From assembly GCA_029785825.1 (NCBI GenBank), contig JAFLYY010000001.1, forward strand, positions 649,374 through 713,373: 64,000 nucleotides of DNA. The letters run 5' to 3'. This document shows, piece after piece, positions 1 through 49,844 of this stretch. A model generated the notes under the pieces. The model was given only the letters and a program-made list of their open reading frames with translations, made no database searches and had not been told where the DNA came from. The position numbers were made by a program, and so were the translations under genes. Within the stretch, counting starts at the first letter, position 1, and each line of letters begins with the position of its first letter. This DNA is from Nitrososphaerota archaeon. Its GTDB lineage: Archaea; Thermoproteota; Nitrososphaeria; Nitrososphaerales; Gagatemarchaeaceae.

Positions 1-2810
1 ACCTCAGGTCGGCGGAGCAAGAGCTGAACGGGAAGCTCGGGGACCTGGGTGCGAGGCTCGTGGAGCTCGAGAACCGCATCGGGCAGGTGGAGAATGACAA
101 GACGAAGTTCATAGTGGAGGTCATCCAAGGCGGCGGGGCGAGCCATGTGGAGCTCCAGTTCCAGCTCGCCGAGATGAGGAACGAGCTGGAGTCCCTGGAG
201 GGGGACTACAAGGCAGCACAGGCGAACGTCTCAGAGCTGGAAGGGGAGACAGTCCCCCAGCTCAAGCAGGTGGTGACGGAGAAACAGAGGGAGGCGAACG
301 CGGCCGCCTCCACCGTGAAGCAGCTGACGGGAGAGATAGATAAACTGGACGGCAGGCACGCAGAGCTGGCGCAGAGGCTCAAGGAGTTCTTCCAGGCCGG
401 GGAGGAACTGAGGCGGACCATCGAGAAGAAGGCCAAGCTCACATCAAAGGTGCAGGTGAAGCTCGCCGACCTCGGGCAGAAGCTCACCCAGGTGGACCTG
501 GCGATAAACGCGGCCAGCGCGAGCCTGGGGGTGGAGAAGAAGCGCCTGGACGAGCTCAAGCTCAGGGTAGACGGCTACTCGGAGGTGCTGGAGAAGCTCG
601 AAGGGAACACGAAGCAGCTCTTCGACCTGTACGACTCTTCCACCAAGGAGCTCAACACCCTGGACGAGAACCTCTCCGAGATGGAGAAGACCAGGGAGAG
701 GCTCGTAGGTTCGATCGCCGGGGCTTCCAAGATACTGGAAAAGGCGTCGGCTGAAATGTCCAAGGAGGAGGCGTTCAGACACATGTCCGAAAGCCTCGCG
801 GGGGAGCGGAGCGGGCAGCTGAAGCTCCAGGGCCTCTGCGAGCAGGGAGGGGTCCCTGGATACGTCGGCCGGCTGGGGCAGCTTGTGAAGTACCCCCAGC
901 AGTACTCGAAGGCTGTCAACGCGGTGATGGGGAGGTGGATGGGGGCGTTCGTGGTGCAGGACCTGAAGGGGATGACCCAGCTGATCAAGGCGGCGAAGTC
1001 GTTGAAGGCGAAGAGCTTCGCCGTGATACCGCTCAGCGAGGTCGAGTCGGTGAAGGCGGCCGAAGTGGAGAGGTCGGCCGGAGTGATCGGGACGCTCTCC
1101 GACGTCATAAAGTGCGAGGACGAGTTCCAGGGGCTGGTCAACTTCCTCGCCGGGGACTCGGTCCTGGTCGAGTCCGAGGCAGTCGGGTACATACTGGCTT
1201 CCGAAGGGGTCAGGGCCGTCACCGAAGCGGGCGAGGCCTTCGAGCCGGGAGGGAGGGCGTTCAGCTACGGGTACCAGGAGCTCATGGTCAACCTGATGGA
1301 AGGGCTGGAGAACATCGAGGGGATGAGCGAGGTCGAGGACGCCGTGGGTGCGCTGAAGGGGGCGATAGACAGGAGGAGGTCAGAGCTCAGCTCCCTCGAG
1401 TCGGAGTCCCGCTCGGTCACGAAGGAGCGGGTCAAGAAGATTGTCTCCACCACTAGCCTGAAGGCCGAGGCCACGACCATCACACGCATGGCGAAGCGGT
1501 ACAGGAGCGTCTTCAAGGCCATGAACGCCGAGTACCAGAAGCAGGCTGCCACGGTGGCCCGACTGGAAGAGAAGCTGAAGGTCAGCCAGGAAAAGAAGGG
1601 AGGGATGACGAAGGGGATCTCTTCGCTCCAGCAGGTGGTGGCCGACGTCCAGGCGCTGGGGCTAGACGCGCACCTCCTGGAGTTGGACGGGACCAAGCAG
1701 TCGGTGTCTGCCGAGATCGACACCATCAGGAACAGGATCCAGGACCTCAACCTCACCCTGACCAGGGAGAAGGCCAACCTGGAGAACGTCCTACTGAGGG
1801 CGCTAGAGGAGAACCAGCTCGACCTGGCCAACGCGACCGAAGACCTGCGGTCTAACAAGGAGTTCACGAAGGACGCCCCGAAGAGGATCAGGGAGCTGTC
1901 GGACGAGAAGAAGTCCCTCGAGGACCAGATTTCGAAGCTGATGGAGTCTTCCCGGAGGAGCCAGCCGGTGCTGGACGAGTTCGACGCCAGGTCGAGGCGC
2001 CTGAAGGAGGAGAGGGACGCGCTCTCGAGGTCCATAGCGGGGAACCAGAAGGAGCTTTTCGCACTGGCGGGGCAGTCTTCCGCGACCCAGGAAAGGGTGG
2101 AGGAGGCGCTGGGGAGCCTCAGGATGCTCGGGTACGCCGAGGAGCTCGAGTTCTTCGAGTCGAGCGAGTCGCTCCTCTCCGAGCTTCAGGAGGAGTACCA
2201 GCAGACCGTCGCCTCGGTCAACAGGGCCGCGGACAGGCAGTACACCGACATGTACCTGAGCTACAAGAACCTCTCCGTCAGGCACAACGAGCTCGAGAAC
2301 GAGAGGAACTCGATAATCGGGTTCATCGAAAGCGTCGAAGCGGAGAAGAGGAAGGTCTTCATGTCAGCCTTCGACAGGGTCGGGTCGGAGTTCAGCGGCA
2401 TCTTCGCGAAGCTTGCGGGAGGGAGCGCCCAGTTGGACCTCGAGAACCCCGAAGAGATCTTCACCGGTGGAGTGATAATGCGGGCGGACTTCGGGAACGG
2501 GCTCCGCGAGTCGTCCCAGCACAGCGGAGGCCAGAGGGCGGTGACAGGAGTATCGATGATCTTGGCCATGCAGGCGGTCCAGCAGCACCCCTTCTACCTC
2601 TTCGACGAGATCGACGCCCCGCTGGACGCGGTGAACTCCAACAGCCTCGCCCGCTTCCTGAGAGAGAAGTCGGCCGAGGCCCAGATCATCGCCATCACCC
2701 TCAGGGACGTCTTCGTCGCCGAGAGCGACATGACCTACGGGGTGTACTCCGCGGGTGGGACGTCCAGGGTGGTGCACTACAAGCCCGCCGAGGTGCCGAA
2801 GAGTGCCTAG
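1..2810 (+). CDS. smc: Chromosome segregation ATPase SMC, C-terminal ~930 aa (5' end outside window)
   Basis: The frame is open from the window edge (LRSAEQELNGK precedes the first Met at 60). It has long coiled-coil stretches and a hinge-like GYVGRLGQLV..MGRWMGAFVVQD. The ABC signature SGGQRAVTGVSMILA and Walker B FYLFDEIDAPLD lie near the C terminus. It is followed by scpA/scpB. Confidence 0.9.
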   Translation, partial: LRSAEQELNGKLGDLGARLVELENRIGQVENDKTKFIVEVIQGGGASHVELQFQLAEMRNELESLEGDYKAAQANVSELEGETVPQLKQVVTEKQREANAAASTVKQLTGEIDKLDGRHAELAQRLKEFFQAGEELRRTIEKKAKLTSKVQVKLADLGQKLTQVDLAINAASASLGVEKKRLDELKLRVDGYSEVLEKLEGNTKQLFDLYDSSTKELNTLDENLSEMEKTRERLVGSIAGASKILEKASAEMSKEEAFRHMSESLAGERSGQLKLQGLCEQGGVPGYVGRLGQLVKYPQQYSKAVNAVMGRWMGAFVVQDLKGMTQLIKAAKSLKAKSFAVIPLSEVESVKAAEVERSAGVIGTLSDVIKCEDEFQGLVNFLAGDSVLVESEAVGYILASEGVRAVTEAGEAFEPGGRAFSYGYQELMVNLMEGLENIEGMSEVEDAVGALKGAIDRRRSELSSLESESRSVTKERVKKIVSTTSLKAEATTITRMAKRYRSVFKAMNAEYQKQAATVARLEEKLKVSQEKKGGMTKGISSLQQVVADVQALGLDAHLLELDGTKQSVSAEIDTIRNRIQDLNLTLTREKANLENVLLRALEENQLDLANATEDLRSNKEFTKDAPKRIRELSDEKKSLEDQISKLMESSRRSQPVLDEFDARSRRLKEERDALSRSIAGNQKELFALAGQSSATQERVEEALGSLRMLGYAEELEFFESSESLLSELQEEYQQTVASVNRAADRQYTDMYLSYKNLSVRHNELENERNSIIGFIESVEAEKRKVFMSAFDRVGSEFSGIFAKLAGGSAQLDLENPEEIFTGGVIMRADFGNGLRESSQHSGGQRAVTGVSMILAMQAVQQHPFYLFDEIDAPLDAVNSNSLARFLREKSAEAQIIAITLRDVFVAESDMTYGVYSAGGTSRVVHYKPAEVPKSA

Positions 2811-3465
2811 CTCCCCCCTGCTTGGGAAGCCCCCGCTGAACGTCCTGATCGATCCATCCCTGGCCAAGCGCAAGAGCCCCTGGGAGATCAACCTGACCGA
2901 GCTTCTGGGGATGTTCCTGAAGGCGATTTCAGAGACGGAACTCATCGACATGAGGGCCGCCGGCACCGCGGCGCTCTCTTCGGCCACGATCTACAGGCTG
3001 AAGGTCGAGACGCTCTTCCTCTTCGAGAGGCTCAGGCTGCAGCAGAGGCCCCTGGACCCGTCCGAGCCGCCGCAGATCATCGTGATGCCCTTCCGCTACG
3101 AGATATACTCGACCAACATAGACGAGCTGTTCAACGAGCTCGGGCGGATCCTCCAGGACATCGTCATAGACGAGGCCAGGGGGGGCGAGAACCCGCTGTC
3201 CATCGCCGACCTCCCTCCTCCCAACTTCGACGATTACGTTGTGTCCCTCCAGGCACTGCTCTCAGAGTTCAGGAAGATACTCGTCGAGAGGCTGAGCGGG
3301 ACGGGGAAAGTGCTCCTCTCCGAGCTGTTCCGGGGCCTCTCCCCACTCGACGCCGCACGCGTCTTCCTACTCCTCCTCTTCGCGGCCAACGACGGTGACG
3401 TCGTCATCGAGCAGGGGGAGACGGACTCGGACGCGCTGGTGGTGTCGGTGGGCCAGCTTGAGTAG
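2755..3465 (+). CDS. scpA: Segregation and condensation protein A (kleisin)
   Basis: A 236-aa ORF lies directly after smc. It shows the kleisin-like SPWEINLTELLGMFLKAISE..MRAAGTAALSSATIYRLKVETLFL. ATG 2755 overlaps smc by 56 nt, so the true start may lie downstream. Confidence 0.72.
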   Translation: MGRPGWCTTSPPRCRRVPSSPLLGKPPLNVLIDPSLAKRKSPWEINLTELLGMFLKAISETELIDMRAAGTAALSSATIYRLKVETLFLFERLRLQQRPLDPSEPPQIIVMPFRYEIYSTNIDELFNELGRILQDIVIDEARGGENPLSIADLPPPNFDDYVVSLQALLSEFRKILVERLSGTGKVLLSELFRGLSPLDAARVFLLLLFAANDGDVVIEQGETDSDALVVSVGQLE

Positions 3466-9818: not shown

Positions 9819-9904
9819 CGCCCCCGTCGCGCCGAAGACAGGTGTTAAACGATTCCGGCGGCGCCTGGTACCTTATTGTACCCGCCCGGGCGGAGGGAGA
9901 GCCC

Positions 9905-10456
9905 TTGTCCAAGCTGTGGCTGGTCTCCGGCCCCCCAGGTGTAGGCAAGTCGACGCTGGTGTCCAGGGTCGTCTTGAAGCTGAAGAGTGCTGGGGTGATA
10001 GTGGGTGGGTGCACGACGTCAGAGAAGAGGGAGGGCGGGGCGCGGGTAGGGTTCGAGGTGAAGGACCTCACCACCGGAAGGAAGGGGGAGCTGGCTTCGG
10101 TCTCCTCGAGGTTCGGCCCCAGGGTTGGGAGGTACAGGGTGAACCTGGTGGACCTGGCGGAGATAGGGGCCGCGGGGCTCGAAGCGGCGGCCGAAAGGTC
10201 GGAGCTGATAGTCGTCGACGAGGTAGGGCCCATGGAGCTCGTCAGCCCTGAGTTCAGGCGCGCGGTCGAGAAGTGCGAAGCTACCGGGAAGCCGATGCTG
10301 GCAGTGGTACATGAAAGGATGGAGGACGACATCCTCGGCGAACTCAAGGCCCATGCGGAGGAGGTGGTCGTCCTGAGCCCTGAAAACAGGGACGCCGCCG
10401 CGGACGACCTCGGGGCGAAGCTCCTGGCCGCGGTGGGTGGGCCGAAGACAGGTTGA
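9905..10456 (+). CDS. THEP1-family nucleoside triphosphatase
   Basis: It has the P-loop LVSGPPGVGKSTL and Walker B VVDEVGPMEL. TTG 9905 has GGAGGG 7 nt upstream. The longer ORF from GTG 9842 would begin inside a TATA-like GTTAAAC. Confidence 0.75.
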   Translation: MSKLWLVSGPPGVGKSTLVSRVVLKLKSAGVIVGGCTTSEKREGGARVGFEVKDLTTGRKGELASVSSRFGPRVGRYRVNLVDLAEIGAAGLEAAAERSELIVVDEVGPMELVSPEFRRAVEKCEATGKPMLAVVHERMEDDILGELKAHAEEVVVLSPENRDAAADDLGAKLLAAVGGPKTG

Positions 10457-10484
10457 GAGAGTCTCGCGCTGTCGGGGGCGTGGT

Positions 10485-10513
10485 AGTAAAATGCTCTACA
10501 GGCGTGATATCAC
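10485..10513 (+). promoter_or_regulatory. TATA-like box (AGTAAAAT) followed by a perfect 10-nt palindrome GTGATATCAC
   Basis: AGTAAAAT lies at 10485-10492 and GTGATATCAC at 10504-10513. They are 35-60 nt upstream of the GTG start at 10547. Confidence 0.3.
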
Positions 10514-10546
10514 ACGCTAGAGCGAAAAGTCAGGCTTGCGCAGGCA

Positions 10547-11533
10547 GTGGGACTATGGCTAGCCGAAGGGGACAAGTTAACCAAGCGAGAAATCACATTT
10601 ACTAACAATCAACCTTACCTTATCGCCCTCTTCCATAGGCCAGTTCATGAGAATCTCCATCCGAAGCACACGCCTCGCATTGCAGTATATCTTCCCAATC
10701 TGGACATCCCTTACGAAAAACCTGTTGGGTGGGCAAGATGTCGAGTGTATGTGGATAAAAGGGCAAACGTGCCGTACTACATCTACCGGGTGAGCGGAGT
10801 AAAGACTGTCAAGAGTTGGAGAGCGCTTGTATCTTCTGTCTCCAGCGACACGAGTGACTACGGACCAGTTCTGCAGGGTTTCTTCGCTGGAGAGGGAAAT
10901 GTTAGAGAGAGTGCCCATCACTCGCGACTAGTCAGAATTGCACAGGGAGAGCCTTATCCCCTGCTGGAAACAATTCTGCGCCACTTTGGAATCTCGTTCA
11001 AGTACGGAGGCCATAGGGAGTATTCGATTTCTGGCCGCGACAACTTCGAGAAAATCCTCGCATTAGGAGCAGCTCATCTTCATCGTTCGAAGCATAAGAA
11101 ACTTCTCAGAATGATGGAGAGATACCGGCAGCACCACTATCCGTATCATGCCCTACACGCGTTGGTACTGGCCAGACTCTCGACTCCCCGAACTGCTGAG
11201 GACCTTGCTATCGACCTGAAGCGCTCGACGTCGCGGCTTCGTCAGGTTCTGTGCGATTTGAGGTCCAAGGGAGATATCAAGATGTACCATGTCAACTCGA
11301 CATACTTCTGCGTAAGGGCAACCTCCGGGGTAGTGGCAATCTCGAAGCAGAAGGCTCGGATTCTTGCTTTGATGGAGGCTCTCCATCGTCCTTTCGAACT
11401 GTCCGCAGAGTTGAAGAGGAATCGAAAGGCGGTCACCCGCCGGTTGCGCGAACTTGAACACATCGGCTTGGTCTATCTGGAAAAGGCTAATTGGCACAAA
11501 AGTCCGACAACCAGCCGGGTGATTGTAAGATGA
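10547..11533 (+). CDS. LAGLIDADG-type homing endonuclease-like protein fused to two C-terminal winged-helix domains
   Basis: Two LAGLIDADG motifs are present (GLWLAEGD at the N terminus, LQGFFAGEGNV about 105 aa later). Two HTH-like segments follow (TAEDLAIDLKRSTSRLRQVLCDLRSKGDIKMYHV; ELSAELKRNRKAVTRRLRELEHIGLVYLE). Confidence 0.7.
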   Translation: MGLWLAEGDKLTKREITFTNNQPYLIALFHRPVHENLHPKHTPRIAVYLPNLDIPYEKPVGWARCRVYVDKRANVPYYIYRVSGVKTVKSWRALVSSVSSDTSDYGPVLQGFFAGEGNVRESAHHSRLVRIAQGEPYPLLETILRHFGISFKYGGHREYSISGRDNFEKILALGAAHLHRSKHKKLLRMMERYRQHHYPYHALHALVLARLSTPRTAEDLAIDLKRSTSRLRQVLCDLRSKGDIKMYHVNSTYFCVRATSGVVAISKQKARILALMEALHRPFELSAELKRNRKAVTRRLRELEHIGLVYLEKANWHKSPTTSRVIVR

Positions 11534-12235
11534 CGATAGTCGGTGGGCTCGACGAAGCTGGGAGAGAGCAATGGCCCTCCATGCTCCCCAACAGGTTGCC
11601 TACTGGGACCCCTCGTTGTTGCGGGAATCTCTATTGAAAGAAGCAAGGTCAGGAAACTGAAGGAGATTGGCGTAAAGGACTCCAAGCTACTCTCGGCGGC
11701 TAGGAGGGATGAACTCTACCCCCAGATAAGGGAACTCGCCGAACACGTCCACTGGGTTGGAATTCCGCCGAGGGAGATAGACGAAGTCGTGACGACCGGC
11801 CGGAGGCTTCGGAAGCTCAACTATCTGGAGGCGATTTACTTCGCCAGGGTCATCGCCCATCTGGGGGCGGAGAAGGTAACTGTGGACGCCTCTGACGCCG
11901 TCGCCGACCGCTTCGGAAGGGACATCTCCGCCAACTTGGCTGCGAAGGTGAAGATTGCCTCCCTGCACAAGGCCGATATGAACTTCCCAATCGTGTCGGC
12001 AGCCTCCATAGTGGCCAAGGTCGAGAGGGACAGACAGGTGGAGCTCCTAAAGCAGGTGCACGGGGACTTCGGGTCGGGGTACCCTTCAGACCCAGTTACC
12101 ACAGACTTCTTCACCAGGTGGCTGGCTCGCGGGGCCCCCCTTCCCCTCTACGTGAGGAAGAGCTGGAAGACCTGGGACCGCTATGCCAGACTCGCGGGCT
12201 TACCCGGCCGCACAGGCTCCCCTACAAGGTTTTAG
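11530..12235 (+). CDS. rnhB: Ribonuclease HII, interrupted by a 28-nt intervening sequence (11565-11592)
   Basis: ATG 11530 encodes MTIVGGLDEAGR. The rest (GPLVVAGISIE..VKDSKLL..HKADMNFPIVSAASIVAKV..GSGYPSDP) is in the +1 frame. The span is 706 nt (3n+1). Removing 11565-11592 gives MTIVGGLDEAGRGCLLGPLVVAG, 225 aa. Confidence 0.85.
11565..11592 (+). other. Candidate BHB (HBh'-type) intron in the rnhB mRNA
   Basis: UGGG (11559-62) pairs with CCCA (11587-90). The 3-nt bulges are AGA (11563-65) and ACA (11591-93). The inner helix is GAGCA (11566-70) with UGCUC (11582-86). Cleavage after the second bulge nucleotide gives exactly the junction needed for DEAGRGCLLGPLVV. Confidence 0.7.
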
Positions 12236-49294: not shown

Positions 49295-49844
49295 GCCACC
49301 AGTCGTACCTCAGGAAGTCGATCGTCTTCCTGTCCTTGTCTGAGATGGCGATGATGAACTGCTTCCTCACCGTGGTGGCCAGCCTCCCCGACCTCACCAT
49401 CGAGGTCGCAGTCATCTTCGAGTCGGGGGAGACCACCTGGACGATGTAAGGGGCGTGGTCTATCCCCGGCCCGTGTTCGTAGACCGCGAAGTCCGACCCG
49501 AACTTTATCCCCGGGGTCACCACGAAACCGGCTTCCCTGAGCTTCCTGTAGACCTGGAACTTCTCGGCGAAGTCGTTGTAGGATGCCTCGCACAGCTGGT
49601 GGAGCTTCTTGGGGGCGATCTCCTTCCCCGAGGCGTCTTCCACCCCTATCACCTTCTTGGTGGTCAGGTAGTACCCTTCCATCAGGTCTAGGATGAGGGG
49701 GGCGTCGAACAGGAAGTCCTTCGGCTTCGGGATGCCAAGGGGCTTGCCGTAGTACCCTTCTTTGAACAGCCTGCGGGACTCCTCGATGTCCCAGACCACT
49801 ATCCTGTTCTCGAAGAGCCTGCCCCTGGCCCGCGCCCCGGGCAC
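49287..49844 (-). CDS. endA: tRNA-splicing (BHB) endonuclease
   Basis: A 185-aa protein with GYYGKPLG. The catalytic Tyr/His/Lys contexts are FAVYEHGPGIDHAPYIVQV and RKQFIIA. Confidence 0.88.
   Translation of the reverse strand: MPGARARGRLFENRIVVWDIEESRRLFKEGYYGKPLGIPKPKDFLFDAPLILDLMEGYYLTTKKVIGVEDASGKEIAPKKLHQLCEASYNDFAEKFQVYRKLREAGFVVTPGIKFGSDFAVYEHGPGIDHAPYIVQVVSPDSKMTATSMVRSGRLATTVRKQFIIAISDKDRKTIDFLRYDWWRA

Follow-up and report, generated by a model that had tools for sequence, protein, structure and literature searches.

Archaeal bulge-helix-bulge (BHB) introns carry no ribozyme, reverse transcriptase or open reading frame (ORF), and how very short ones are gained and moved is an unsolved question. 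In the literature that we searched, the only BHB intron documented in a protein-coding gene is that of the cbf5 pre-mRNA of Crenarchaeota, a short intron that has been gained and lost among relatives (PMC2738675). The rnhB intron described here is likewise a short BHB intron inside archaeal coding sequence, gained and lost among relatives. Unlike the cbf5 intron, which has no associated endonuclease gene, it comes with a plausible vehicle that is concrete and testable, with direct evidence of horizontal movement, and with a much wider phyletic spread.

A precedent for such a vehicle is F-CphI, a free-standing endonuclease encoded beside the intron-containing psbA gene of cyanophage S-PM2, a case of collaborative homing (Zeng, Bonocora and Shub 2009, via PMC6083498); T4 mobE, paired with the defunct I-TevIII intron, is comparable (PMC2790892). 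In both F-CphI/psbA and the rnhB cassette, the endonuclease gene lies outside the intron, and the adjoining gene is interrupted at a conserved site by an intron without an ORF; nuclease gene and intron either both occur or are both missing, the flanking exon is co-converted, and the intron shields its carrier while the nuclease mobilises the intron, which for rnhB is our proposal. The rnhB cassette differs from F-CphI/psbA in residing in cellular archaea and not in phages, in encoding a LAGLIDADG nuclease with tandem winged helices and not an Endo VII-like or HNH enzyme, in having a protein-spliced BHB intron of 20-43 nt and not a self-splicing group I intron, and in lying inside its target gene, where a truncated piece of the 5' end is left behind and a substitute exon 1 is provided, cleavage being only inferred.

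Two further systems bear on the encoded protein. The gene for I-DmoI lies within a large BHB intron of rRNA, and the enzyme carries no additional domain. The rnhB-linked protein resembles it (PDB 1b24, 2vs7, 2vs8) in its predicted monomeric two-motif fold, its AEGDK-type motif, its archaeal host and its association with a BHB intron. It differs in being encoded outside the mini-intron of a protein-coding gene and in carrying two winged helices. WhiA, vertically conserved in Gram-positive bacteria, no longer has the catalytic acidic residues. Our family shares with it a LAGLIDADG scaffold followed by a C-terminal helix-turn-helix module (a weak structural match to PDB 8dy9 chain I); unlike WhiA, it keeps both glutamates and is sporadic.

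A composite cassette within rnhB

The window, i.e.: the whole 64,000-nt stretch of DNA analysed, contains a 328-aa ORF that is one component of a composite cassette of about 1.2 kb, made of a remnant of the host gene, a leader, the ORF, a replacement exon 1 and a BHB intron. The features are as follows:

9842..10456, + strand: THEP1-type NTPase gene, host flank (Pfam NTPase_1, E 5.2e-48)
10453..10483, + strand: 31-nt remnant of the 5' end of the host's original rnhB, reading TTG..MRESRAVGGV plus one G of an Asp codon
10484..10546, + strand: cassette leader, 63 nt, with a TATA-like TAGTAAAATG (10484-10493) and the palindrome GTGATATCAC (10504-10513)
10547..11533, + strand: gene for the 328-aa protein with a predicted LAGLIDADG core and two winged helices, GTG start
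10547-11131, + strand: LAGLIDADG core, residues 1-~195
10550..10573, + strand: LAGLIDADG motif 1, GLWLAEGD, residues 2-9, putative catalytic E7, nearly invariant (alignment A1)
10871..10900, + strand: LAGLIDADG motif 2, LQGFFAGEGN, residues 109-118, putative catalytic E116
11144-11320, + strand: first winged helix, wH1, residues ~200-258
11330-11530, + strand: second winged helix, wH2, residues ~262-328
11530..11564, + strand: replacement rnhB exon 1, 35 nt, MTIVGGLDEAGR, ending with the first two bases of an Arg codon
11565..11592, + strand: BHB mini-intron, 28 nt (custom scanner)
11593..12235, + strand: rnhB exon 2 (Pfam RNase_HII, E 8.5e-35), the first ~70 nt of which (to ~11660) belong to the transferred block
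49326..49571, - strand: EndA catalytic-domain gene, one of two in the host (PF01974, 104.7 bits; G000:C1:698699-698944, window coordinates computed from the window offset)

The first-pass annotation had described a lower-G+C island between the THEP1 stop codon (10454-10456) and rnhB, and this was borne out: G+C content is 0.50-0.53 over 10450-11350 against 0.64-0.69 in the flanks (0.51 vs 0.65 for the trough overall). GC3 is 0.56 in the ORF and 0.81 in THEP1, and along rnhB exon 2 it climbs from 0.62 through 0.70 to 0.80, remaining depressed to ~11750. The ORF had been called the only content of the island; this does not hold, as the rnhB-start remnant and the leader come first. Its placement between THEP1 and rnhB stands as far as coordinates go, but it is not simply between them: the ORF sits within what was originally rnhB, and exon 1 and the mini-intron arrived with it. 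The overlap of the ORF's TGA with the rnhB ATG (ATGA, 11530-11533) and the start of the mini-intron 35 nt downstream were both read correctly from the start. The foreign block extends beyond the ORF, through exon 1 (which falls within a block 92-97% identical to the sister metagenome contig L098) and the intron, into the first part of exon 2.

The gene order Trm1-THEP1-(cassette)-rnhB-fibrillarin is also found in G018 and L098. In relatives the THEP1 stop overlaps the native rnhB start, and the sequence reads ..RAIGGVDEAGRG straight after THEP1. The remnant in the window follows this pattern until it is broken within the D codon of the DEAGRG motif. We observed equivalent truncated remnants at other loci (G018, L035, L036, L037, L052, L058, L068, L069, L080, G332, and L098); in at least 10 loci the break falls 3-13 nt upstream of the intron site. 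Since remnants are short and diverged, their detection at the DNA level had low power, with only 3 of 41 loci exceeding shuffled controls; the remaining ones were identified from their translated peptides.

The leader is 84% identical to that of L098, compared to 55-57% for adjoining host DNA. We considered the palindrome GTGATATCAC as a conserved operator and dropped the idea: it is imperfect in L098, and nothing like it was seen by eye in more distant leaders. Rfam gave no match within 10300-11800.

A predicted LAGLIDADG fold with two winged helices

Two LAGLIDADG motifs followed by two winged-helix-like segments had been proposed for the ORF from its letters, and the proposal was confirmed at the level of family and structure. 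Taken alone, the window protein is a weak case: PF14528 scores 17.1 bits (cut-off 22.5) and the TrmB profile 24.7 bits (cut-off 25.6). The same PF14528 profile matches 22 of 26 homologues (E<=0.01; best 4.3e-6). The AlphaFold2 model (pLDDT 91.6) places helices at residues 2-7 and 102-116, each followed by beta-sheets. In a Foldseek search the N-terminal ~190 residues matched I-DmoI (TM 0.55-0.61, target-normalised), E-DreI and the bI3 maturase, all with a probability of 1.0, and the C-terminal half matched tandem winged helices. Weak for the lone sequence, both domain assignments are firm for the family and for its predicted structure.

Sequence identity to I-DmoI-type archaeal LAGLIDADG endonucleases is only 13-16%. 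Searches with phmmer and with the family profile against PDB sequences gave weak winged-helix matches only and no LAGLIDADG match, and an NCBIfam search returned only sub-threshold helix-turn-helix matches (Lrs14, Sta1, Csa3).

According to the model, the protein has the monomeric two-motif architecture of I-DmoI, with an acidic residue ending each motif. hhalign pairs motif 1 with the I-DmoI motif ..GLYVAEGDK, of the AEGDK type, and the invariant positions of motif 2 in alignment A1 are G111, F113, A114, G115, E116, and G117. Among intact copies AEG of motif 1 is kept in 52 of 53, and so is GEGN of motif 2. Whether the catalytic acidic residues were intact had been left to be checked: the window copy retains both glutamates, E7 and E116, as well as N118 and a basic residue at position 120. 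The ORF evolves under purifying selection (dN/dS 0.13-0.24). A compact monomeric LAGLIDADG nuclease with a tandem winged-helix module would be a new architecture of potential practical interest, DNA cleavage being inferred.

We also considered an intein and rejected it. No Pfam match to a Hint-family domain was obtained in the window protein or its homologues, the ORF is closed by a stop codon of its own, and a duplicated exon and an RNA intron restore the host frame; the earlier placement of the ORF outside any intein was right.

Collaborative homing as the probable explanation

Three origins had been left open for the ORF: a mobile endonuclease gene, the displaced ORF of a formerly larger rnhB intron, and a domesticated regulator. 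The first is favoured by the presence of the ORF in 2 of 25 genomes of the genus, its foreign composition, the truncated start of the host rnhB and the discordant divergence from L098. The second, as an account of origin, is neither supported nor excluded. The third is disfavoured, for reasons given below with the distribution of the gene.

We read the cassette as a free-standing homing endonuclease gene working together with an ORF-less intron ('collaborative homing'), and we give this reading a probability of roughly 0.7. That the nuclease cuts the intron-less site, that the intron protects against it and that the RNA is spliced are inferences. The tandem winged helices would here be the DNA-binding module of the endonuclease, and the cassette would specifically target the GG[VIL]-DEAGRG codons of the catalytic site, which lie at the 5' end of rnhB.

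The proposed cycle would start with the enzyme cutting uninterrupted rnhB alleles in or beside the D-E-A-G codons, after which a cassette-bearing allele would template repair of the break. The left end, consisting of the recipient's first ~10 codons, would pair with the donor remnant and stay behind as the new remnant, and the right end would pair within exon 2. The whole intervening stretch would thereby be copied in, from the leader through the endonuclease gene and the replacement exon 1, which has its own start codon, to the 28-nt BHB intron, and the full RNase HII frame would be regained via the replacement exon. The host tRNA-splicing endonuclease and ligase would take the intron out of the mRNA, so that RNase HII would still be made. 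In the DNA, the intron would part the two halves of the recognition site and shield the carrier from its own nuclease. We lean, with some reserve, towards the broader claim that a three-part element (LAGLIDADG-winged-helix gene, replacement exon 1, and ORF-less BHB mini-intron) homes into rnhB across Nitrososphaeria, DPANN, and Thermoplasmata.

Horizontal movement and decay of the cassette

Between the window and L098, the cassette (10490-11660) is 82-97% identical and the dS of the ORF is 0.37, while THEP1 and the remaining rnhB are about 72-73% identical, with dS of 1.13 and 1.16. The cassette is thus far less diverged than the genes that flank it, and has therefore moved horizontally. Past ~11660 identity drops from 0.92-0.97 to 0.53-0.67, giving a co-conversion tract of about 70 nt. 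Residues 1-50 of rnhB are closest to ORF-bearing loci and residues 101-200 to ORF-less congeners. Most relatives have empty rnhB sites, and an empty-site congener (G023) occurs in the same metagenome, from a mine-drainage community, at about 7x depth against about 83x for the carrier.

Stages of decay are observed among the carriers. The ORF is intact in the window, G018, and L033; it has decayed in L098 (start lost, 150-nt deletion, frameshift) and also in L052 and L084; in G332 it is deleted altogether, with remnant, new exon 1 and intron kept. The GTG start of the window copy lies one residue ahead of GLWLAEGD, homologues being 4-30 residues longer, and this codon is GTA in L098, where the gene is dead. 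With a single residue before motif 1, provided by the only start codon, the window copy may be weakened or partly disabled.

It is possible, though doubtful to us, that the family consists of homing endonucleases and that the window copy is an inactive relic that arrived by homing and is now fixed and decaying, so that only the intron and the replacement exon still matter to the cell. Within the open frame no ATG, GTG or TTG precedes the 10547 GTG, which leaves the first LAGLIDADG helix at least 4 residues shorter than in every homologue; the public gene call begins at residue 75 (P0001, 254 aa); and the sister copy in L098 is dead, other loci have truncated or frameshifted ORFs, and G332 has lost the ORF. 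Yet the 328 codons are unbroken and align end to end with intact homologues, both glutamates, N118 and the basic residue at position 120 are retained, dN/dS is still 0.24 when measured against the already dead L098 copy, and the predicted fold is confident, helix 2-7 included.

Two points here count against collaborative homing itself: cleavage, splicing and expression are inferred only, and the window copy is possibly disabled.

Distribution of the ORF and its intron

The ORF was found at 64 loci in at least five archaeal phyla, spread over Nitrososphaeria, DPANN, and Thermoplasmata, and it lies immediately 5' of rnhB in almost all loci with readable downstream sequence. Its distribution is sporadic: beyond the two carriers in the genus, none of 16 other families of the order has it. 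The first-pass annotation held that conservation of the ORF at this position across distant relatives would argue against recent mobility. This situation is met in form only: the ORF does stand 5' of rnhB in distant phyla, but because the element is site-specific, and not through vertical inheritance.

ORF and intron tend to occur together. Both ORF-bearing congeners carry the intron, while 28 of 28 ORF-less relatives have a contiguous DEAGRG or DDAGRG and no intron. In a 300-genome sample of the class, the only genomes among the best 150 matches listed with an rnhB alignment starting after the intron site were the host (G000) and G332. Nine loci bear the ORF without the intron; in eight of them the site codons are altered (DD[SA]G, a CGN Arg or an AAG Lys), and L059 differs only in DDAG. 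These exceptions, together with the intron-only G332, fit decay or resistance.

An improbable reading of these data is that the protein is a domesticated, WhiA-like, non-cleaving DNA-binding protein that regulates its own promoter, rnhB or both, having spread by ordinary transfer of the 5' module of rnhB. Its two winged helices are of the MarR/TrmB/Lrs14 type, WhiA appears at rank 41 of the structural matches, the gene is translationally coupled to rnhB and under purifying selection, and the leader palindrome lies just past the TATA-like box. However, 52 of 53 copies retain the acidic residues that are gone from WhiA-type proteins, and 23 of 25 congeners, like about 99% of the class, lack the gene and have a normal rnhB. 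The presence of the gene is moreover tied to interruption of the adjoining site, the host remnants are broken at one defined place, and the palindrome is imperfect in L098 and was not seen by eye in the more distant leaders.

Among about 5.8 billion clustered proteins, the closest relative of the ORF is 79% identical over two thirds of its length and the next 61%; no very recent transfer is visible. The ORF tree mostly tracks host phyla, so jumps across phyla are rare. IMG/VR contained no relatives, leaving viral carriers unsupported. The nine intron-less carriers, the lack of very recent transfer and a tree that follows host phyla weigh against collaborative homing.

A covarying BHB mini-intron

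The 28-nt intron splits the Arg codon of the catalytic DEAGRG motif. Its central helix is TGGG:CCCA, flanked by bulges of 3 nt each (AGA and ACA), and its inner stem is GAGCA-A-TGG / CCA-TGCTC. Excision would yield GGG AGA GGT TGC (G R G C), with DEAGRG in frame. A canonical BHB is found at the identical Arg codon in at least 44 loci. In the 37 loci used to assess covariation, pairing is 100% in the central helix, whose variable positions show 5-6 pair types, and 92% in the inner stem, with 6 of 6 pairs covarying; the covariation score is 0.451 against 0.128 for shuffles, none of 500 being higher. Since these loci had been preselected for having all 4 central pairs and 3 or more inner-stem pairs, the percentages paired are in part a product of that choice; this does not apply to the diversity of pair types or to the in-frame position, which is fixed.

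EndA is the enzyme expected to excise the intron, splicing being inferred; the second EndA catalytic-domain gene of the host lies at C1:1415312-1415566. No RNA run was found to contain this organism, none of the contigs from three metatranscriptomes of the same study fell on the locus, and a search for RNA runs with the Thermoplasmata locus L043 came back empty.

It is very hard to credit that the protein is an RNA-binding, maturase-like factor that recognises the rnhB hairpin and promotes or gates its splicing, making RNase HII synthesis dependent on it: Foldseek ranks the bI3 LAGLIDADG maturase first (E 6e-5) and relates the C-terminal half to the winged helices of SelB, which bind an RNA hairpin, and ORF and intron co-occur, but EndA cuts BHB introns unaided and the host has two EndA genes, the intron is intact without a functional ORF in G332 and L098, the ORF stands without the intron at nine loci, the catalytic residues are conserved, and Foldseek matches show a fold class, not a ligand.

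A second, large BHB intron, reaching from the upstream remnant to exon 2, was also considered and rejected. The remnant has no EAGR codons, so that splicing it to exon 2 would delete catalytic residues, and the two candidate splice-site contexts are direct repeats and not complementary.

Given the break points, the intron would lie at the edge of a LAGLIDADG site of ~22 bp, a point that counts against collaborative homing. Protection would require that the winged helices read DNA past the intron, which is conjecture.

Significance

A full-text literature search gave no description of an rnhB intron or of a LAGLIDADG-winged-helix family, nor did it find collaborative homing described for archaea or for BHB introns. 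If our reading is true, collaborative homing would be seen for the first time in cellular archaea, tRNA-type (BHB) introns would have their first demonstrated DNA-level vehicle, and the nuclease would be the first of the LAGLIDADG class to extend its target by tandem winged helices; the truncated remnant would both mark the cleavage site and provide the left homology arm when the cassette next homes. The cassette suggests how tiny archaeal introns spread between genomes.

The window is unusually informative in this respect, as it combines a 31-nt remnant, a sharp G+C contrast, a discordant sister locus and an empty-site congener in the same metagenome, which together show direction, boundaries and co-conversion. 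The locus also explains the 'broken' rnhB genes and the 'predicted transcriptional regulators' that gene callers report in carrier genomes.

Two rnhB starts flank the endonuclease gene

The first-pass annotation had described an endonuclease ORF in an island of lower G+C between THEP1 and rnhB, and both are there: G+C is 0.50-0.53 over 10450-11350 against 0.64-0.69 in both flanks, and GC3 is 0.56 in the ORF against 0.81 in the upstream THEP1 gene. The THEP1 stop, the ATGA overlap and the 35-nt gap to an insert in rnhB also lie where it had put them. The ORF is real, but the interval is not simply intergenic, as an old rnhB start precedes the ORF.

Features of the rnhB locus and splicing-endonuclease genes of the same genome
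10454-10456, plus strand, THEP1 gene stop (sequence read)
10484-10513, cassette leader, TATA-like TAGTAAAATG followed by the perfect palindrome GTGATATCAC
10547..11533, plus strand, endonuclease ORF, 328 codons, GTG start
11530-11533, plus strand, ATGA overlap of endonuclease stop and rnhB start (sequence read)
11530-11564, plus strand, complete second start of rnhB, MTIVGGLDEAGR; a 63-nt leader and the ORF precede it
11565-11592, plus strand, 28-nt rnhB insert, followed by GCLLGPLVVAG...
49326-49571, minus strand, EndA catalytic-domain gene 1
G000:C1:1415312-1415566 (elsewhere in the window genome), EndA catalytic-domain gene 2

Right after the THEP1 stop the sequence encodes MRESRAVGGV and is broken inside an Asp codon at 10483. 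This remnant overlaps the THEP1 stop TTGA-fashion, as native rnhB does in relatives, and because ORF-less relatives read ..RAIGGVDEAGRGCLLGPLVVAG at the same position, we identify the 31-nt piece as the host's original rnhB start. The 28-nt insert is a textbook bulge-helix-bulge (BHB): its central helix is TGGG:CCCA, the 3-nt bulges are AGA and ACA, and the inner stem has 5+3 bp. Cleavage on either side behind the second nucleotide of the bulge is predicted to give GGG AGA GGT TGC, i.e. G-R-G-C in frame. The two EndA catalytic-domain genes lie apart, have open frames of 186 and 240 aa and would fit a broad-specificity splicing endonuclease made of two subunits. An intein was excluded, and so was a further large intron that would splice the remnant to exon 2.

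Fold and family of the endonuclease

Taken alone, the window protein stays below both profile cut-offs (LAGLIDADG_3, 17.1 bits against 22.5; TrmB, 24.7 against 25.6), and profile searches support the annotated LAGLIDADG identity only through its relatives: from a family of 76 homologues (30-79% identity), 22 of 26 sampled members match LAGLIDADG_3 and 20 of 26 match TrmB. An AlphaFold2 model built from the family alignment has a mean pLDDT of 91.6. With Foldseek, its first ~190 residues match monomeric two-motif enzymes, namely I-DmoI (TM 0.55-0.61 by target length), E-DreI and the bI3 maturase, and its C-terminal third matches tandem winged helices, e.g. SelB and ESCRT-II, with WhiA lower in the list. 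These matches uphold the two LAGLIDADG motifs and winged helices proposed from sequence; on the strength of this predicted structure and of the family, not of single-sequence profiles, the fold is settled. Both motifs end in glutamate (E7 in AEGD, E116 in GEGN), (nearly) invariant in the family alignment and retained in 52 of 53 intact genomic copies, so that the putative catalytic acidic residues are intact. Motif 1 aligns with the AEGDK motif of I-DmoI. Between unsaturated pairs of ORFs dN/dS is 0.13-0.24, and the gene therefore encodes a protein under selection.

The arrangement recurs across archaea

With each prokaryotic species represented by one genome, a scan gave 64 loci that encode this family, in Nitrososphaeria, Woese-, Pace-, Micr-, Aenigmat-, Nano-, Iain- and Altiarchaeota and Thermoplasmata. 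The ORF lies immediately 5' of rnhB in nearly all loci with readable downstream sequence, usually with a -1 stop/start overlap, and in most ORF-rnhB loci rnhB is interrupted right after DEAG. A purpose-written scanner, run over 65 loci (window included), detected in 43 of them a canonical BHB whose excision would restore D[ED][AS]G[RK]G in frame; an intron-only genome of the same class, G332, provides the 44th. The introns measure 20-43 nt. Almost all of them interrupt the Arg codon; in some lineages the position is 1-2 nt off.

At the 37 loci whose intron sits in the main position, every central helix is fully paired. Two of its positions vary, showing 6 and 5 different pair types; they correspond to wobble bases of the Ala and Gly codons and the intron bases opposite them. 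Pairing in the inner stem reaches 92%, and double changes occur in each of its six pairs. Covariation scored 0.451 against 0.128 in shuffles, a value that none of 500 shuffles exceeded. Because pairing was a criterion in choosing the loci, the paired percentages follow in part from the selection, which does not apply to the variety of pairs at a position set by the reading frame. Only 43% of the outer exon-exon helix is paired, and this weakness makes the BHB one of the relaxed type, which two-subunit and epsilon-type endonucleases accept (PMC5829648).

Offset introns (+2 nt in L041, L072, L089, L093 and L096; -1 nt in L065 and L068) occur in Micrarchaeota-type loci and in some others. Every variant has a covarying central helix of its own (e.g. 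GCAG:CTGC), suggesting independent insertions or BHB sliding. In some DPANN loci (L068 at ~1925-3030, P0068 and P0073) the old rnhB start MTTILGIDE is fused in frame to the endonuclease N-terminus, and the endonuclease frame continues into the new exon 1 (..MTTILGLDEAG); spliced mRNA could there encode the nuclease fused to RNase HII, and the unspliced form only the nuclease.

Probable collaborative homing at rnhB

The best-supported reading, to which we give a probability of about 0.7, is collaborative homing, here in archaea, with a LAGLIDADG-winged-helix nuclease and a protein-spliced mini-intron; cleavage, protection by the intron and RNA splicing are inferred. The definition of the term comes from F-CphI and the group I intron in psbA of cyanophage S-PM2 (PMC6083498), a phage system, whereas the present element resides in an archaeon and its mini-intron is predicted to be protein-spliced.

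Truncated host rnhB starts lie 5' of the ORF in the window, in its ORF-bearing congener G018 and at L035, L036, L037, L052, L058, L068, L069, L080 and L098; G332 likewise holds one, at an ORF-less locus. Remnant homology to exon 1 stops short of the intron site by 3-13 nt, inside the D-E-A-G codons, as double-strand-break repair predicts if the nuclease cuts there. In composition and divergence the window remnant resembles the host, and the cassette begins right after it. We propose that the nuclease would cut within these codons, that the recipient's left end would survive to the break and pair with the donor's remnant while its right end pairs in exon 2, and that everything between both pairing ends would be copied in. 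The replacement exon 1 would recreate the left half of the target, leaving the intron alone to part the halves; from this we infer a protective role for the intron.

The cassette is younger than the split of its two hosts

A sister metagenome contig (L098; ENA ERZ27233565 k141_315906) carries the same cassette at 1350-2500; its synteny and its remnant/leader junction match those of the window. Sliding-window identity between the two is 82-97% from ~10490 to ~11660, a span covering leader, ORF, exon 1, intron and ~70 nt of exon 2, against 55-85% (mean ~72%) outside it, in Trm1, THEP1 and the rest of rnhB. Since dS is 0.37 for the ORF against 1.13 for THEP1 and 1.16 for rnhB exon 2, this block of identity places the cassette after the split of both hosts. 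Judging by these comparisons, the cassette was exchanged with a short co-conversion tract, of which there are two independent signs: GC3 climbs from 0.62 to 0.80 along exon 2 of the window, and exon 2 residues 1-50 are nearest ORF-bearing loci, residues 101-200 nearest ORF-less congeners. The metagenome that yielded the window genome (mine drainage, run X1) holds the carrier at ~83x and an empty-site congener, G023, at ~7x. G023 contigs in this run are identical to its locus L010 (493-1118) across the uninterrupted THEP1-rnhB junction; carrier and potential recipient thus coexist.

The sister ORF is dead, with GTA at the start position, a ~150-nt deletion (equivalent to window 11220-11365) and a frameshift, and its intron is intact at 27 of 28 positions. 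The main reservation peculiar to the window is its own start codon, and its copy may be weakened or inactive, though this is less likely than not: translated from the GTG at 10547, the protein has a single residue ahead of motif 1, there is no other in-frame start codon 5' of it, and the sister has lost even the GTG.

Sporadic distribution and exceptions

Within the window's genus the ORF occurs only in the window genome and G018 (with 56% identity between the two copies), and it was found in none of the 16 other families of the order. rnhB is uninterrupted in 28 of 28 loci of ORF-less relatives; G018 has the intron. This sporadic occurrence, with a cassette younger than the host split, favours a mobile endonuclease gene, one of the readings that the first-pass annotation had entertained. 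Another of its options, a domesticated, WhiA-like regulator, is improbable, being contradicted by the retained glutamates and by a distribution that is sporadic and tied to the site.

In a 300-genome sample of the class, and among the best 150 matches listed, only the window genome and G332 had rnhB alignments beginning past the intron site. G332 belongs to another genus of the same family; its locus (L097, G332:C5, minus strand, ~60 nt upstream of rnhB) runs from the THEP1 stop through a remnant (..SSGGV/SF..), ~45 nt and a new exon 1 to a 30-nt BHB intron (AGGG:CCCT, inner stem AGACCGCGG/CCGCGGTCT). No endonuclease gene is present at this rnhB locus, which is an intron-only end stage, the ORF deleted and the intron left behind. 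A maturase-like, RNA-binding role for the protein is scarcely credible when introns persist without the ORF.

Collaborative homing also has to accommodate nine ORF-bearing loci without intron (L059, L060, L066, L070, L077, L095, L071, L073 and L084), six of them in one ORF clade of a tree that left out L084. Eight have altered site codons (DDSG for DEAG, CGN for AGR at Arg, or AAG Lys) and may be resistant targets; the ninth, L059, has DDAG-AGA, like intron-bearing members of its own clade. In about ten loci the ORF is truncated or frameshifted.

A full-text literature search turned up nothing on an rnhB intron, this endonuclease family or archaeal collaborative homing; within the literature searched, the cbf5 BHB intron (PMC2738675) is the only one documented in archaeal coding sequence. 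The components are all of known kinds and their combination is new. The window adds a host remnant as junction marker, boundaries in G+C and GC3, a discordant-divergence test, an ORF-deleted stage and a coexisting empty site.

Leader and remnant frame

The leader palindrome has one mismatch in the sister contig (GTAATATCAC), and none was noticed, by eye only, in more distant leaders, so that an operator role is unsupported. The old rnhB start opens a 50-codon frame (10453-10605, MRESRAVGGVVVKCSTG...) that is translationally coupled to THEP1 through the TTGA overlap. As this frame crosses the endonuclease start at 10547 in a different frame, ribosomes arriving from THEP1 may disturb or feed initiation of the endonuclease gene.
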